A DNA stretch of 64,000 nt from Bacilli bacterium (GTDB lineage Bacteria; Bacillota_I; Bacilli_A; RF39; JBKDZI01): positions 8,704-72,703 of the forward strand of contig JBKDZI010000025.1 in assembly GCA_047971215.1 (NCBI GenBank). Direction: 5' to 3'. The position numbers and the translations under genes were made by a program. The notes beneath the pieces are model-generated. The model did not search any database. It was not told where the DNA came from and was given only the letters and a program-made list of their open reading frames with translations. Positions 2,331 through 24,278 of the stretch are shown here, piece by piece; within the stretch, counting starts at the first letter, position 1, and each line of letters starts with the position of its first letter.

Positions 2331-2852
2331 ATGAAAATAATGATACGTGGAAGTAAAGTTGAAGTTACAAATTCAATGAAAAACATGATTGAAAAGAAAT
2401 TAAGTAAAGTTAATAAATTTATAGCTGATGAAAATAAAGAATGTAAAGTTGTAATTAAACAACAACATAGAAATTACAAAATTGAAATTACGATTAATAC
2501 TCCTTACTTTTTAATAAGAGCTGAGGCTTTAAATGATGATATGTATTCTACTATTGATTTAGTGGTAAGTAAACTTGAAAGACAATTAAGAAAGACTAAT
2601 GCTAAATTAAAAAAACATAAAAATGTTAGTGTATTTTCTTTTGAAGAATTTAATAATCCTACAATTGAAGAAGATTCATTAATTGAGAAAAGAAAAACAG
2701 TTGAACTTAAACCTATGAGTGAAGAAGAAGCAATACTTCAATTGGAACTTATTGGACATAGTTTTTATATATTTAAAAATTCTGATACAAATAGTGTTTG
2801 TTTACTTTATAAAAAAGGAAATGGAAATTACGGAATTATTGAAACTAATTAA
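2331..2852 (+). CDS. hpf: Ribosome hibernation promoting factor (long form, S30AE family)
   Basis: The N-terminal S30AE/YfiA-like domain (MKIMIRG..VEVT..M...IEKKL.K) and the C-terminal dimerisation domain typical of long HPF are both present. An RBS AAGGAG precedes the ATG at 2331. Confidence 0.8.
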   Translation: MKIMIRGSKVEVTNSMKNMIEKKLSKVNKFIADENKECKVVIKQQHRNYKIEITINTPYFLIRAEALNDDMYSTIDLVVSKLERQLRKTNAKLKKHKNVSVFSFEEFNNPTIEEDSLIEKRKTVELKPMSEEEAILQLELIGHSFYIFKNSDTNSVCLLYKKGNGNYGIIETN

Positions 2853-2861
2853 TATTTATAA

Positions 2862-2892
2862 AACTCAATATAAAATTGAGTTTTTTATTTAA
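2862..2892 (+). terminator. Rho-independent terminator after hpf
   Basis: The hairpin aaactcaat-ataaa-attgagttt is followed by a T-run. Confidence 0.6.
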
Positions 2893-2944
2893 AAATTAAT
2901 ACTTGTATTTTTGTGAGATAATGTTATAATTGTATTAAATATTT

Positions 2945-2985
2945 GCTTTCTTAGCTCATTTGGTAGAGCAATTGACTCTTAATCA
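2945..2985 (+). pseudogene. Truncated tRNA-Lys 5'-half copy (acceptor 5' strand through anticodon loop, no 3' half)
   Basis: GCTTTCTTAGCTCATTTGGTAGAGCAATTGACTCTTAATCA matches the 5' 40 nt of the intact tRNA-Lys at 3306, including the spliced CTCTTAATC junction. No T-arm or acceptor 3' strand follows. Confidence 0.6.
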
Positions 2986-3120
2986 TAAGGTCTAAACTCT
3001 ACTATACTTAAACAAACCCTTATAGATAAAGGTTTTAGAGTTAATGAACATAAGTTAAACACTCTATCGTACGTAGAATGTACGTAGAAAAAGAAAAAAA
3101 GCACTAAAAGTGCAATAAAT

Positions 3121-3162
3121 GGGACGTTAGCTCAGTTGGTAGAGCAACTGACTCTTAATCGG
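3121..3162 (+). pseudogene. Truncated tRNA-Lys 5'-half copy
   Basis: GGGACGTTAGCTCAGTTGGTAGAGCAACTGACTCTTAATCGG is near-identical to the 5' exon of the downstream tRNA-Lys plus the first 4 nt of exon 2. It has no 3' half. Confidence 0.65.
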
Positions 3163-3305
3163 CGAGTGTCATTAAGCAAATAAGGTGTAACCCCTTTACT
3201 GATAAGGGTTTATAATATATAGGAATTATACTAATACATGAAATATCGGACTTTTATCGGACAACCGATTAAAAAACATGATTTTTATGTTATAATTCTA
3301 TTCAT

Positions 3306-3647
3306 GGACTGTTAGCTCAGTTGGTAGAGCAACTGACTCTTGGTAATCACACTGGGAGTGTATCATAGTAATATGATAATGAAAATCGAGCAAAAACGGT
3401 AAACGCTGAAATGCTAATACCGTGCTAACTTAATAGATAACGATAAGGCTATTAAGCAGTGTAACGCATAGGAACTGAATAAATATAATGTTCCCACGAA
3501 TGCTTGACAACCTACTTTATAATAAAGGGTTGATAATGTATGCTGAACTATATAGAACAACAATATATAGATGTATCGGATAAAAAGCCAATACGATAAC
3601 AAAATGTAATCAGTGGGTCTGGAGTTCGAGCCTCCAACAGTCCACCA
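3306..3647 (+). tRNA. tRNA-Lys(CUU) interrupted in the anticodon loop by an intron of about 266 nt. The exons are 3306..3340 and 3607..3647, with CCA encoded.
   Basis: The 5' exon is GGACTGT TA GCTC AGTTGGTA GAGC A ACTGA CTCT. The 3' exon is TAA TCAGT GGGTC TGGAG TTCGAGC CTCCA ACAGTCC A CCA. Acceptor, D, anticodon (ACTGA/TCAGT) and T stems all pair. The spliced anticodon loop is CTCTTAA. Confidence 0.8.
3341..3606 (+). ncRNA. Putative group I intron in tRNA-Lys
   Basis: The 5' exon ends in U, which can pair with G in a P1 helix (exon ACUCU with intron GGAGU at intron nt 15-19). The intron ends in G before exon 2. The size of about 266 nt is typical of bacterial tRNA group I introns. No long internal ORF is present; the 62-aa track ORF on the minus strand is spurious. 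Confidence 0.55.
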
Positions 3648-5865: not shown

Positions 5866-8800
5866 ATGGTTTTATTGAATGAAAGCGTTAGGTTAAGTGG
5901 GAAACAAAGTTTATTTGATATAAATATTATAAGCGAAAACTTCTACAGAGATTTATTAGGAATAATTGAAGATGATGAACTTGCGAATGGGAATTTCTTT
6001 GAACAGAATAATGCTGTTTTTGACTTATATAGTGATAAAACAAGGAAATGTTATCAAGTAACTTCAAGAAATGATAAAGCTAAAATTGATGACACTATCG
6101 ACAGTTTTAATAATACGGAGAAGAAACTTTATAATAATTATGATTTACATTTTATAATTATTGGTAAAAAAGTTAATAATCAAAAAATTGTTAAATCTAT
6201 AAATGGTACTCTATTTGATACAAGAAAAATAATAGATTCAGATGATATTTTAACTAAAATTAAAAATTGCAGTATAGAAAAGAAAAAAGAAATATTTGAT
6301 TTTTATAGAAAATATTTTGATAATCAATTAATTAATTTAGATATAAATTTTTTTAGAAACATTTTAGAAGAAAATATTGAAAATTTAGGAGAACGATATA
6401 ATAAACTTATTAATATTTTGACCCCTTTAAATGATTCATTATCTACCTACTTTGTTAATTCAAATGACAAATATAAGTGGCTTAATTCATCAAAATTTTC
6501 TATTGAAAAACTTATTTTAAAAGGTGTTTCGCTAAATACATATAATGACGACTTTATAATTTTTAATAAGGAAGTTAGAAATAATGTCTTTTCAAATATT
6601 ATTATATATTTAAATAATGTTATTAAAAAAACGGATGTATTATTAGAAAGTTTAGATTCGAAAGATGATAAAAATTATTATACAATCAATGAATTAAATA
6701 AACAAAAAGATATTTTATTAGGTATTATTAATAACTTTAGTGTTGCCAATAAGAGTTTGTTTGTATTAAAAGGAAAAGCTGGTATGGGTAAAACACATAC
6801 TGTTACTTATTTTGTAAAAAATGAAATCGAAGAATACAATAAATACTCTTTACTAATTTTAGGACAACATATTAATCAAAGAAGTTCAATAGATTCACAA
6901 ATTATAAATAATTTGAATCTAAATATGACTTTTGATGAGTTGCTTTTTGCTTTGAATGAATATGGATATAAAAAGGATTGTACAGCATCTATAGTTATTG
7001 ACGGAATAAATGAAGGATTGGAATCTTATAATTGGAGAAACTATATTAATGGAATTGTTCAAAAGATTTCCAGATATAACTTTGTAAAAGTATTAATTAG
7101 CATACGTAGTGAATATGTTGATAGCTGTTTGCCAGATGAATTGTTCAATAATGATTTAGTATATACAAAAGAGCATCAAGGATTTAAAGAAAATTTTACT
7201 ACTATAATGACTCAAGTATTTGATTGTTACGACTTAACAATGCCTGTTTTTCCAATCATTGACCATAATTTTTCTAACCCGTTATTTGTTTTTACATTTT
7301 GCAAAATGGTAAAAAAACTAAATAAACCACTAATTATAAAAAAGTATGATGATTTCACTCAGGTCTATATTGATTATATTAATCTCGTTTCAACAAAATT
7401 ATCAGCTTTATTTCATTACGAAAAAGACGATGAAATATTGCAAAACATAATCAAAACATTCATAAACTTTATTTTAGAAAATAAAACTAATTATATTTAT
7501 AAAAAGGATTTACTAAAAATTATAACTGATTCTACTAATGGATATGGTATTGTTGCGAATGATTACCTAATTGCAATGAAAAGTGAAGGATTGATTTACA
7601 AAGATTATGCTTATGTTAAAAATGGAGAAAAAGACGATGCTTATGCTGATGTGATAAGATTTTCATTTGAACGATACGAAAAAATACTGACTGCAACATA
7701 TTTGTTAGATAAGTACAATGATGTTGAAACATTGGAAAGTGACATCAATAACGAAAATAATATTGGGGAATATTTTTCTACATCTAGATATAATATAGAT
7801 TTTGGTTTAATACAGGAGCTTTTTATTATTATACAAAATAGATTTAAAACGGAGATATATGATATTATTGATTTTTCTGGTACGGAGGGTTATTTTCAAG
7901 CCAGATTATCTTAAATTTATATTGAAAGTTTGATATGGAGAAAAGAAATATACGATGGTAAGGAACTAGAAAATTTTAGAACTTTTATTAATGATTTTGT
8001 TGCAAAAGATTTAGAAATATTTGATATATTTATAAAATTATTGATTAAAACATCTTTTATTAAAAATCATCCATTAAATTCTGATTTTTTACATAACTGG
8101 CTTTTTAATAAAAAATTAGGAGAACGAGATTATATTTGGACGATAACTATAAATAACCTATATTTGTATGACAACGAAATATTTGATATGTTGTATGAAT
8201 ATTGTATGACACAGGGAAATAAAAACCTTGATGATGAAACTATCTTGCTATTTTCACAATTATTAGGTTGGTTTTTTACATCTTCTAACAGAAAAATGAG
8301 AGACAAGTTTACAAAATGTCTCGTATCTATACTAGAAAACAAAATACATTTAATGACTAATCTCATCGATATTTTTTTGGAAGTTGATGATATGTATGTG
8401 CTTGAAAGAATATTAGCAGGGTGCTATGGAGAGATATTAAGAAGTGACATATTGGAGCCTAGCAATGTATTTTCCGACTATATTTATAATAGTTTTTTCA
8501 AAGATAAAGTATTAAATCCTAATATCCTAATTCGCCATTATTGTAAATCAATCATTGAATTTGCTACTAGAAATTTTACTATGAATTTTGATATCAATGA
8601 AATATATAATCATAAAAAAAATGAATGGTACAAACAGAAAGAAATTCCTACCTCGGAAGAAATAAAAGAAAAATATGTTTATGACTATAGAGACGAAAAA
8701 ATAAAAAGATATTATTTTTCTTCAAATACAATAGTAAGCTCAATGACTACGGAACATAGTGACCTTGGAATGTATGGAGATTTTGGTAGATATATTTTTG

Positions 8801-9966
8801 AAAGATTAGTAGACCAATGGAAACATCATTTTAGAAAGCAGCAAATATTAGCAAATATCGTAATTAAAAGAGTATTTGATATGGGATATGATGTTGAAAT
8901 GCACGGAATTTATGACTCCACCACTCACAATTATGATAAATATTCTCACAATCCTGAAAGAATCGGTAAAAAATATCAATGGCTTGCTACATACGAATTA
9001 ATTGGAAAATTATGTGATAATTTTAGTATGATAGAATATGTATATAGCGATACTCCAATTGATTTAGAAAAAAATAAGTACCTAGATAGACATTATAATG
9101 AAACAAAGAGTTTAAATAAAATTAATTACGTTATTGTAAATAAATACGATATGAATGATTCATCAATTATTAATATTGATCCATCATTATTTATTACTGT
9201 ACAAGAAAGAAAAGCAATAAAAATTGAATCTAGCAATAGCGATTGAGTTAACCAAGATATAGACGTAAAAGAAGTGATATTCAAAACTATAGATGGTGTA
9301 GAATATATATCACTCGGGAATGTTGAAGAGTGGGTTAATGACGAACATATTGCTGACTGGCACCACCCTTTTAAAAAACGTGTTGCTATAAAATCAATGT
9401 TATTCTTAACTGCAGATGCCAAAAAATTTATGAAAAAAGATTCGAGTATGCTTTGCGATTTAGGATGGAGTTCTCACCTCAATACATATATATTAGAACT
9501 CAGTAAATCAAATTATTATTATGAACAAATTGTGCCTGATGAATATTGTTCTAAGAAGGATGATGACATTGCTTTCTCATTTAGTGAATATTGTTGGGAA
9601 AATGGTGGATACGATGGTTCAATCGATGAAAGTATTAATATCTATTTCCCTTGTTTCTTCTTAATTAAACTCTTAAATTTGAAACAGAAAAATGACTATC
9701 GTTGGTATGACGAAAACGATAACCTTATATGTTTTGATACTTCATTAACAAATGGAATCAACAATTTGTTAATTGAGAAAAATATATTTTTAAAATTTAT
9801 TGAGGATAATGGCTTTTCTTTTGTTTGGGGAATGTATTACGAAAAAGACACAAATAATTGGAGAACTAGCTGGAGAAAAAATGTTACAATAGATAAACTA
9901 GATAAACATGGAAAAATTAGAGAAGTTGTTTTGGAAAAAGAAAGTTATAAATTAAGACAATTTTAA
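5866..9966 (+). pseudogene. NACHT/STAND-like P-loop NTPase, a single 1367-codon reading frame interrupted by two in-frame stop codons (TAA 7912..7914, TGA 9244..9246)
   Basis: The track ORFs 5866..7914, 7930..9246 and 9274..9966 are all in the same frame. Only one stop codon separates each pair, and the latter two lack ATG starts (TTG and GTG are the first codons). Walker A is LKGKAGMGKTHT and Walker B is SIVIDGINEG (hhhhDGxxE, NACHT-like). A roughly 300-aa N-terminal domain and roughly 750 aa of C-terminal helical region are typical of STAND sensors. Confidence 0.5.
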
Positions 9967-18541: not shown

Positions 18542-18746
18542 AAATTCCTCCCTCTAAATCAGTAAATATTATAATATCTTATCATTATAGAAGAAAAAAT
18601 GCAATAGGTTTTATGAAAAAAGGTGTAAAAATTTATGTAAACTTAATTAATATCGTTGAAATTTAAATTATTATATATTTTCAAATAAAAAAACAATTAC
18701 ATATAATTATTTTATATAAATAAGCTTTTTATGCTTTTTTTCATTT

Positions 18747-18812
18747 TGGAGGGCCTAGCCGGATTTGAACCAGCGATCAGGGAGTTGCAGTTTTAGCCTC
18801 TGACCTTCATTA
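18747..18812 (-). pseudogene. Degenerate tRNA-Cys-like 3' fragment (anticodon loop, T-arm, acceptor 3' strand, CCA)
   Basis: The reverse complement ...GGCTAAAACTGCAACTCCCTGATCGCTGGTTCAAATCCGGCTAGGCCCTCCA aligns with tRNA-Cys at 18988..19062 (CTGCAAC loop, TTCAAATCC, GGCCCTCCA). It lacks a pairing anticodon stem and a 5' acceptor strand. Confidence 0.5.
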
Positions 18813-18987: not shown

Positions 18988-19062
18988 TGGAGGGCCCGAT
19001 AGGATTTGAACCTACGCGTCGAAGAGTTGCAGTCTTCTGCCTTACCACTTGGCTACGGACCC
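18988..19062 (-). tRNA. tRNA-Cys(GCA)
   Basis: The reverse complement is GGGTCCG TA GCCAAGTGGTAAGGC A GAAGA CTGCAAC TCTTC GACGC GTAGG TTCAAAT CCTAT CGGGCCC T CCA. All four stems pair. Confidence 0.9.
19026..19055. repeat. 30-bp direct repeat (tRNA-Cys D-arm/anticodon region), left copy; the partner is at 28443..28472 (29/30 identical)
   Basis: GTTGCAGTCTTCTGCCTTACCACTTGGCTA versus GTTGCAGTCTTGTGCCTTACCACTTGGCTA. The pair brackets a roughly 9.4-kb block that carries integrase and recombinase genes. Confidence 0.7.
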
Positions 19063-23675: not shown

Positions 23676-24278
23676 ATGTTTGTAGAGACTGGCACTGAAT
23701 ACGGATATGCGAGAGTATCCACTAATAGGCAAGATGGGGCTTATGAGATGACTGCTTTACTAAATGCAGGAGTCAAGCAGTCAAATATTTTCTTTGAAAA
23801 AGAAAGTGGTAGTAATGAATCTAGAGAAAAGTTTAATGAATTACTTGGAATAGTTAAAGCTGGTGACACGATTCGTTCTACTGAGATTACTCGTATTGCT
23901 AGAAATATGCGCAACCTTATAGATATTGTGGAGCTTACAAATAAATTAAAACTTAGGCTTATTATAGGTAACTTAGTTGTTGATTGTAGAACCGATGAAT
24001 TAGATCCTATTACTGAAGTTACTTTATTAGTAATTGGTATGTTTGGGATGTTCGATTTAAAGATGAAGAAGCATCAAATTATGCTTGGGCTTGAGAATGC
24101 TGTTGCTTCTGGCAATAAATTAGGTAGAAAGTTTAAAACTAAAGATGATATTGATGAGAAGTTTTATAAATACTACTCGCAATACAAAAATAATCAAATA
24201 AATCTAACTGAATTATCTAAACTCTCTGGAGTATGCAGACAGACTTGTTATAATTTGATTGATCTTATTGAAAGTTAA
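23676..24278 (+). CDS. Serine recombinase (resolvase/invertase family)
   Basis: The N-terminal catalytic motif YGYARVSTNRQD contains the active-site serine. The length of about 200 aa, with a C-terminal HTH, fits the family. Confidence 0.75.
   Translation: MFVETGTEYGYARVSTNRQDGAYEMTALLNAGVKQSNIFFEKESGSNESREKFNELLGIVKAGDTIRSTEITRIARNMRNLIDIVELTNKLKLRLIIGNLVVDCRTDELDPITEVTLLVIGMFGMFDLKMKKHQIMLGLENAVASGNKLGRKFKTKDDIDEKFYKYYSQYKNNQINLTELSKLSGVCRQTCYNLIDLIES

Follow-up and report, generated by a model that had tools for sequence, protein, structure and literature searches.

The window analysed here is the whole stretch of 64,000 nucleotides (nt) taken from contig JBKDZI010000025.1 of a Bacilli bacterium (assembly GCA_047971215.1); its G+C content is 24%, all coordinates refer to it, and L numbers are our labels for loci in other sequences. 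At positions 3306-3647 lies a tRNA-Lys gene with anticodon CUU whose two halves are separated by an insert, single-copy in the window, that we interpret as a group I intron. The gene and its parts are the following:

3306-3647 (+): split tRNA-Lys(CUU) gene, read directly from the window.
3269-3296 (+): promoter-like site found by a consensus scan, with a putative function; -35 TTAAAA, a 16-nt spacer and a TG-extended -10 TATAAT (3291-3296).
3306-3340 (+): 5' exon, GGACTGTTAGCTCAGTTGGTAGAGCAACTGACTCT, comprising the acceptor 5' strand, the D arm and the anticodon stem 5' strand plus loop as far as U35.
3341-3606 (+): group I intron of 266 nt, T as first base, G as last, without an open reading frame (ORF); identified by a hidden Markov model (HMM) of its family and by covariation.
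3607-3647 (+): 3' exon, TAATCAGTGGGTCTGGAGTTCGAGCCTCCAACAGTCCACCA, from U36 to the encoded CCA, beginning TAATCAGTGGGTC and ending CCACCA.

The -10 element ends 9 nt upstream of tRNA position 1. When the two exons were joined in silico, ARAGORN called a tRNA-Lys(ctt) of 76 nt with all stems Watson-Crick and CCA encoded, in agreement with the perfect CUU cloverleaf described in an initial annotation of this locus; the separation of the exons by about 266 nt, also described there, was recovered both by direct reading and by ARAGORN in intron mode, which reported a single split tRNA whose limits are exactly 3306-3647 and whose intron has 266 nt. One T at the boundary is ambiguous and an intron at 3342-3607 is formally possible; only 3341-3606 yields both a U as last base of the 5' exon (U-1) and a G at the end of the intron (omega-G). 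The intron-less tRNA-Lys(CUU) gene of L116 has an identical tRNA body (positions 8-48), and positions 8-35 of the 5' exon are identical in six intron-bearing homologues as well as in the L116 gene; the acceptor and T stems of the 3' exon covary with the 5' exon across homologues. Placing the insert at 35/36 reproduces the uninterrupted CTCTTAATC of the L116 gene and of two intron-less 5' copies (stubs) that lie upstream in the window. Because of U-1, omega-G, the pair U3340-G3355 at the end of the P1 helix and the match to the stubs and to L116, the gene is a tRNA-Lys(CUU) with its intron between anticodon positions 35 and 36.

The secondary structure of the intron was derived by eye from the window sequence and four Bacilli-type copies, and was then tested on two alignments: A2, with 105 distinct members of the intron family (helices P2 to P9.1, P7 treated as a pseudoknot), and A4, with six distinct tRNA-hosted pre-tRNAs (full structure, including the tRNA stems and P1). 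Its elements, with the support for each, are:

3336-3359 (+): P1, exon ACUCU (3336-3340) with guide GGAGU (3355-3359), U3340-G3355 standing at the 5' splice site; present in 6/6 tRNA-hosted copies.
3361-3378 (+): P2 hairpin, 7 base pairs (bp), with a GUAA (GNRA) loop; compensatory changes 7/7 in the family and 3/7 in the tRNA-hosted copies.
3386-3391 (+): P3 5' strand, partner of 3502-3507; 99% of cells paired, double changes in 4/6 pairs (105 sequences).
3392-3396 (+): joining segment J3/4, AAAAA; A3396 is counted twice, as the last J3/4 base and in the first P4 pair.
3396-3423 (+): P4 (3396-3401 with 3418-3423) and a short P5 (3405-3406 with 3413-3414), with A-rich J4/5 and J5/4; from the alignments.
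3424-3460 (+): P6 (G3424-U3460, C3425-G3459) and the P6a hairpin (3429-3436 with 3449-3456); covariation.
3464-3470 (+): P7 5' strand, A3464, bulged C3465 and GCAUA (3466-3470), partner of 3539-3544; from a second, viral set of sequences (below).
3471-3494 (+): P7.1 hairpin between P7 and P3', 5 bp, loop UGAAUAAAUAUAAU; double changes in 4/5 pairs.
3502-3507 (+): P3 3' strand; alignment of 105 sequences.
3508-3532 (+): P8 hairpin; double changes in 5/5 outer pairs.
3533-3538 (+): J8/7, AUAAUG, read together with the P7 3' strand.
3539-3544 (+): P7 3' strand, UAUGC plus U3544; from the second viral set and alignment with Patescibacteria introns.
3548-3570 (+): P9 hairpin, 7 bp; double changes in 6/7 pairs.
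3573-3594 (+): P9.1 hairpin with conserved loop AUAAAAAG; double changes in 7/7 pairs.
3606 (+): omega-G, last intron base; G precedes TAATCAG in 6/6 tRNA-hosted copies.

The guide starts at the 15th intron base, and the P1 pairs C-G, U-A, C-G and U-G are invariant in all six tRNA-hosted copies; the P1 helix is present in the minimum free energy fold and could be extended by pairing 3341-3344 with 3351-3354. Thus the P1 helix proposed initially (ACUCU with GGAGU, the exon-end U facing a G) and the terminal G of the intron both stand, in the window and in the other tRNA-hosted copies. Members of the family mostly end in AACAnnnTG. All six tRNA-hosted copies have the same P7.1 loop, UGAAUAAAUAUAAU, and so do most, though not all, family members.

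Covariation was observed for every helix. In alignment A2 95.1% of the cells pair, against 71.9% in column shuffles and 28-45% when the partners are slid by 1-3 columns; changes on both sides occur in 47 of the 61 pairs, long-range P3 included, and the window sequence carries every column that is invariant across the 105 sequences. The P6 C-G pair is replaced by G-C or U-A in 11 sequences, while P6a shows double changes in 8/8 pairs. The first three P4 pairs are invariant by construction: P7 and part of P4 were fixed by the search pattern in A2, so a second viral set was assembled with P7 left free. It holds 84 distinct members among the matches listed, and a fully complementary P7' was located in 77 of these, as GCAUA/UAUGC (57), GCGUA/UACGC (19) or the canonical GACUA/UAGUC (1); in the same 77 of the listed matches the base 5' of the P7 bulge pairs with the base after P7' without exception (A-U in 56, G-C in 21). 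Since complementary variants and the closing pair are kept in 77/77, P7 is a helix of six pairs in which a single bulged nucleotide precedes a G-C pair. The guanosine-binding helix of group I introns is P7, with one bulged nucleotide and then a G-C pair; G3466-C3543 is the presumed guanosine-binding pair here.

In alignment A4, 97.9% of the cells pair, and double changes occur in 29 of the 86 pairs, in the acceptor and T stems as well as in P2, P3, P4, P6a, P7.1, P8, P9 and P9.1, among introns that are 79-88% identical. Double changes in both sets of helices at this divergence indicate that tRNA and intron have both been kept foldable, as would be expected under selection on both, and this argues against a dead gene. 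The fold of the P3-P7 core and guanosine site suggested in the initial annotation therefore gave a P3-P9 core with a P3/P7 pseudoknot and a bulged P7, supported by covariation; its group I interpretation agrees with the P1 U-G pair, the core pseudoknot, the bulged P7 with its G-C pair and omega-G. All structural hallmarks of group I are present with covariation support, and catalytic activity is predicted from them.

We consider it highly likely that this tRNA-Lys(CUU), split at 35/36 by a 266-nt protein-less group I intron, is spliced in the following way. Transcription would start from the TG-extended -10 promoter at 3291-3296, and the intron would fold into a P4-P6 domain and a P3-P7-P8 domain joined by the P3/P7 pseudoknot, with P2, P7.1, P9 and P9.1 in addition. 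The guide GGAGU (3355-3359) and exon ACUCU would form P1 and present U3340-G3355; a free guanosine bound at the P7 pair G3466-C3543 would attack after U3340. Omega-G3606 would then occupy the guanosine site and the 3'-OH of the exon would attack before U3607, joining U35 to U36 to give a mature tRNA-Lys(CUU) with encoded CCA. The window intron has an intact structure and very probably splices itself.

To place the intron among its relatives we searched with three core motifs common to the four Bacilli-type copies, GCAAAAACG, AACGCATAG and TATGCTGA. The three motifs co-occur, identical, in 157 contigs (99 metagenome stretches and 58 viral contigs), and the first scans gave at least 93 distinct cores. 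Only four of these lie in a tRNA (L146, L147, L202 and L206), the others in phage-like contexts. The family loci are labelled L121-L277 and L284-L355. BLAST against annotated phages matched 59 records at 68-77% identity, covering up to 88% of the intron, in crAss-like phages (in or near genes of the terminase large subunit) and in Staphylococcus, Clostridium/Clostridioides and Bacillus phages; a further site of the family lies between tail and tape-measure genes, and phage records carrying family introns include MH356730, OM634653 and NC_055895. In Staphylococcus phage SA2 the match falls between two coding sequences (CDSs) both annotated as terminase large subunit, and in Bacillus phage PJN02 between two CDSs for RecD-like helicases, after ORFs annotated as 'mobile intron protein' and 'endonuclease'. 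Cutting the element out of L124 at U-1/omega-G leaves an ORF whose match to the terminase large subunit phrog_6681 continues through the junction (E=1.4e-34, PHROGs); Pfam gave no match on this spliced ORF. The guide varies with the host gene, for example GCGGGG facing exon GACCCGU in terminase.

A family HMM built without the window row matches 3382-3606 with E=3.8e-49 (162 bits), thus the similarity of the insert to the family is not due to chance. On this sequence comparison the window intron is a member of a large family found chiefly in protein-coding genes of phages. Those copies of the family that are hosted by tRNAs make up one subgroup, as if the intron had colonised tRNA-Lys(CUU) of low-GC Bacilli-like bacteria only once. 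Side by side with these results, L257 and L158, which have the same core, show two family introns nearly back to back, the end of the first (...GGTAACAATCTG) being followed within about 60 nt by the next P3 start; this arrangement suggests a very short exon or nested introns.

We also scanned one genome per species for tRNA-Lys exons lying 236-296 nt apart. Most of what the scan returned was tandem tRNA arrays; of ten candidates that were not tandem, eight are genuine split tRNA-Lys genes, one is the oddity L027, and one, L004, is a poor archaeal match that was treated as chance. Among the genuine ones, L051, L109 and L111 come from low-GC metagenome-assembled genomes (MAGs) labelled uncultured Bacilli or 'Mycoplasma sp.', and their inserts are homologous to that of the window. 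Two Pyrinomonadaceae genes, L048 (4430-4779) and L100 (6145-6491), are tRNA-Lys(CUU) split at site 35/36 by a different group I intron; three from Planctomycetota, L021 (1188-1540), L036 (256-610) and L065 (4912-5266), are tRNA-Lys(UUU), also with a different group I intron. The introns of these two groups resemble Actinomycetota Lys introns labelled IB2 in PMC13011429. L027 (1861-2196, minus strand), in a Gemmatimonadales MAG, has tRNA-Lys(UUU)-like halves with 7/7 acceptor pairs, 260 nt apart, and the 260-nt spacer holds a complete second tRNA-Lys(UUU) gene (80 bits). We also compared the window with the other intron-bearing loci for synteny by tblastn of nine window proteins, which gave zero matches.

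Several points weigh against the group I reading or temper it. Rfam model RF00028 gives no match on the insert, either at its gathering score or at E<=10; the sequence-level likeness to published introns of subgroup IA amounts to only 7-16 bits; P5 is short and weakly supported (84% paired); the intron, which holds only short spurious ORFs, has no homing endonuclease that would account for its mobility; and transcription, catalysis and in vivo splicing of the window gene are steps that we infer. The RF00028 search had been proposed in the initial annotation as a check of the group I call, and it came out negative; we judge it uninformative, because the same model is silent on 15/15 other family members scanned (E<=1), including copies between split phage genes. 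It is also silent on the tRNA-hosted inserts of the Bacilli-type loci L051, L109 and L111, and it misses the Planctomycetota introns L021 and L036 (L065 was outside that scan), while detecting the different introns of L048 and L100 with 56-59 bits. The RF00028 seed held no bacterial introns (Williams 2020, bioRxiv 10.1101/2020.01.27.920355). We read the silence of RF00028 as a gap in the model and not as counter-evidence to group I membership.

The alternative that survives best is a decayed, splicing-dead group I intron or other inert insertion, the gene being a pseudogene like the stubs. Two dead 5' copies do adjoin the gene, standard tools give neither a tRNA call (default ARAGORN at 3306-3647) nor an intron call (the Rfam tRNA and intron models report nothing at the locus), and it is general knowledge that AAG is usually readable by tRNA-Lys(UUU) in low-GC bacteria. 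However, all helices of intron and tRNA are intact, every invariant column of the 105-sequence alignment is kept, compensatory changes occur in both tRNA and intron among six copies of 79-88% identity, and a promoter-like site has been retained, so that we regard a dead gene as improbable. A structured element of another type (a group II fragment, for example, or a miniature transposon or integration scar) would accord with the silence of the Rfam group I model, but the insert is too short for group II and has no RF00029 match, it shows no target-site duplication or terminal repeats and is not repeated in the window, and its topology, host-dependent guide pairing, omega-G and restored reading frames fit group I; we give such an element very little chance, and we discarded the readings as a group II intron, archaeal-type intron or transposon because of the insert's size, its lack of repeats and the way its pairs covary. 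A tRNA-Thr(CGU) with the insert at 34/35, which is what ARAGORN in intron mode (-i) proposes by placing the insert two bases upstream, and which gives a valid cloverleaf too, has next to no prospect of being correct, as it requires C-1 and a U at the intron 3' end, contrary to the group I rule, disregards U3340-G3355 at the end of the P1 helix in 6/6 copies and a tRNA body matching the intron-less tRNA-Lys(CUU) of L116 and the stubs, and reflects a two-base shift of ARAGORN and tFind that is documented for 35/36 introns (PMC13011429).

Returning to the spliced tRNA-Lys(CUU), its intron was compared with group I introns already described. The Michel and Westhof classification of 1990 reportedly takes one or more extra helices between P7 and P3' (P7.1, with P7.2 in some) as the mark of subgroup IA. 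In the window intron a single hairpin is seen at this place (3471-3494), with 4/5 pairs covarying. The core may also resemble that of the Twort orf142-I2 ribozyme, a likeness offered as a lead only. Within a 3.8-kb set of examples, the family HMM gave weak collinear matches to three of the Patescibacteria IA introns (E from 5e-6 to 3e-3), and no match to the IC3, IB2 and IA1 examples.

Introns at 35/36 in tRNA-Asn and tRNA-Asp of Patescibacteria belong to subgroup IA and self-splice in vitro, and 35/36 insertions are rare outside that group and mostly IA (PMC13011429, mSystems 2026). The Patescibacteria IA introns in tRNA-Asn, -Asp and -Tyr share with the window intron the 35/36 site, U-1 and omega-G, a guide near the 5' end, the P2 GUAA loop and, in most cases, the lack of an endonuclease. 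In an alignment of the window intron with two of them (from tRNA-Asn and tRNA-Asp) the elements follow one order: P3, P4 with A-rich joints, GC-UAA-P6a-..GU, P7, a hairpin located between P7 and P3' whose loop is UGA..AAUAAU, P8, and a J8/7 starting GAUAA/GAUGA; their A-rich J2/3 reads UGAAAA against AUGAAAA in the window. ARAGORN and tFind miss them or displace them by two bases, and ARAGORN does so with the window gene too. They differ in the host tRNA (Asn or Asp against Lys(CUU)), in the host, which for the window is a bacterium of 24% G+C with FtsW and standard housekeeping genes, and in P7, GACUA/UAGUC against GCAUA/UAUGC. Splicing was tested for the Patescibacteria introns, whereas for the window intron we infer it.

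The initial annotation regarded a tRNA-Lys host as unusual, which turned out to be less so. Williams 2020 (bioRxiv 10.1101/2020.01.27.920355) raised the intron-interrupted classes of bacterial tRNA from 4 to 21, and its seed alignment holds Mle24.Lys.3Ug and Mpe6.Lys.4Ug; with these classes, tRNA-Lys genes split at 34/35 or 35/36 were already on record. Table S5 of PMC13011429, in the part available to us, lists Lys(TTT) introns at 34/35 in Actinomycetota, labelled IB2 or IC3, and its Bacillota rows show only Arg(TCT). To these are added the Pyrinomonadaceae and Planctomycetota cases above. All of them have, like the window, the anticodon loop of a tRNA-Lys split by a group I intron, Lys.4Ug and L048/L100 at the same 35/36 site; but they belong to a different family (IB2 or IC3; ...AUGCUGGAACACCCUGAGAGC...CAGAGACU...) without P7.1 and occur mostly in the UUU isoacceptor and in high-GC phyla. 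The IC3 introns of cyanobacterial tRNA-Leu(UAA), tRNA-fMet, Azoarcus tRNA-Ile and Agrobacterium tRNA-Arg are likewise small, usually ORF-less introns of the anticodon loop, yet they have no P7.1, sit at 33/34, 34/35 or 36/37 and are readily found by RF00028. The family introns in phage genes, in turn, have core motifs and structure in common with the window; they have protein-coding hosts and several carry endonuclease ORFs, whereas the window copy sits in a chromosomal tRNA, has no ORF and has its guide tuned to the anticodon loop. In those parts of the literature that were available to us, no Lys(CUU) 35/36 intron of the phage-type family is described in low-GC Bacilli. What is new is therefore the CUU isoacceptor in low-GC Bacilli-like bacteria together with a phage-type intron bearing P7.1; the kind of gene was already known.

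With this gene, the list of bacterial tRNAs known to be interrupted by group I introns gains tRNA-Lys(CUU) of low-GC, gut-type Bacilli, and the intron is linked directly to a phage intron family that is itself very common. Because the family is invisible to RF00028 and to default tRNA finders, genomes that carry the intron will seem to lack tRNA-Lys(CUU), the gene being missed or misnamed Thr, and many split phage genes (terminase, helicase) will appear in annotations as fragments.

Upstream of the gene lie the two stubs:

2945-2993 (+): stub 1, intron-less 5' part of a tRNA-Lys(CUU), about positions 1-49, acceptor GCTTTCT, with its own TG-TATAAT block; Rfam tRNA 25 bits, below threshold.
3121-3160 (+): stub 2, intron-less 5' part, about positions 1-40, acceptor GGGACGT; direct reading.

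Both carry the uninterrupted CTCTTAATC, and their acceptors differ from that of the intron-bearing gene (GGACTGT); the promoter block of the latter (3287-3302) is identical in 15/16 positions to 2921-2936, upstream of stub 1. Terminator-like hairpins are found after stub 2 (3192-3208, plus strand) and between the stubs (3101-3113, minus strand), the latter with no minus-strand gene to terminate. The idea that the stub tails are decayed 3' parts of the intron is not supported: local alignments reached z of about 4 and 2.6, and a search of 2850-3305 with the family HMM under --max gave no match.

The two intron-less 5' copies had been noticed in the initial annotation, with the suggestion that the intron arrived after they were generated; their existence is borne out, and the suggested order is one reading only, since the differing acceptor stems and the stub of L202 allow for displaced alleles as well. 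In L202 the intron-bearing tRNA-Lys(CUU) (7102-7433, minus strand, acceptor GCACCCT) has a tyrosine integrase (5897-7027, plus strand) ending 68 nt from its 3' end, and 190 nt upstream an intron-less stub (7569-7616, minus strand, positions 1-47, acceptor GTCTCCT) with its own promoter; suf genes adjoin. As the acceptors differ and L202 shows the same arrangement beside an integrase, the stubs may be what is left of resident genes without an intron after incoming DNA displaced them. In the window we found no integrase, no 3' tRNA-Lys fragment and no att repeat that would explain the stubs, and no integrase lies near the gene. A horizontally moving intron-bearing allele, its intron derived from introns of the phage terminase type, that displaces the resident gene and leaves promoter-bearing 5' stubs behind, is a tentative idea that we think rather unlikely to hold; if true, the intron would mark, and might protect, a tRNA integration hotspot.

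The gene setting is one of ordinary chromosomal surroundings. Upstream are genes for peptide deformylase, FtsW/RodA and a ribosome hibernation factor; downstream follow an unknown protein, an S51 peptidase, a SMEK-domain protein, a phosphoketolase, a C39-peptidase ABC exporter, the Der GTPase and tRNA-Cys. The only related fragment in the window is a 3' partial tRNA-Cys (18744-18800, minus strand), which runs from the anticodon loop to CCA (...ACTGCAACTCCCTGATCGCTGGTTCAAATCCGGCTAGGCCCTCCA) about 200 nt downstream of the complete tRNA-Cys(GCA) gene (18988-19062, minus strand) and has the appearance of an att-type scar left by an element that integrated or was lost. The stretch 5866-9966, with the SMEK-domain protein (682 aa) followed by two proteins without a Pfam match, may be a small variable or defence-type islet, and a serine resolvase gene is located at 23676-24278.

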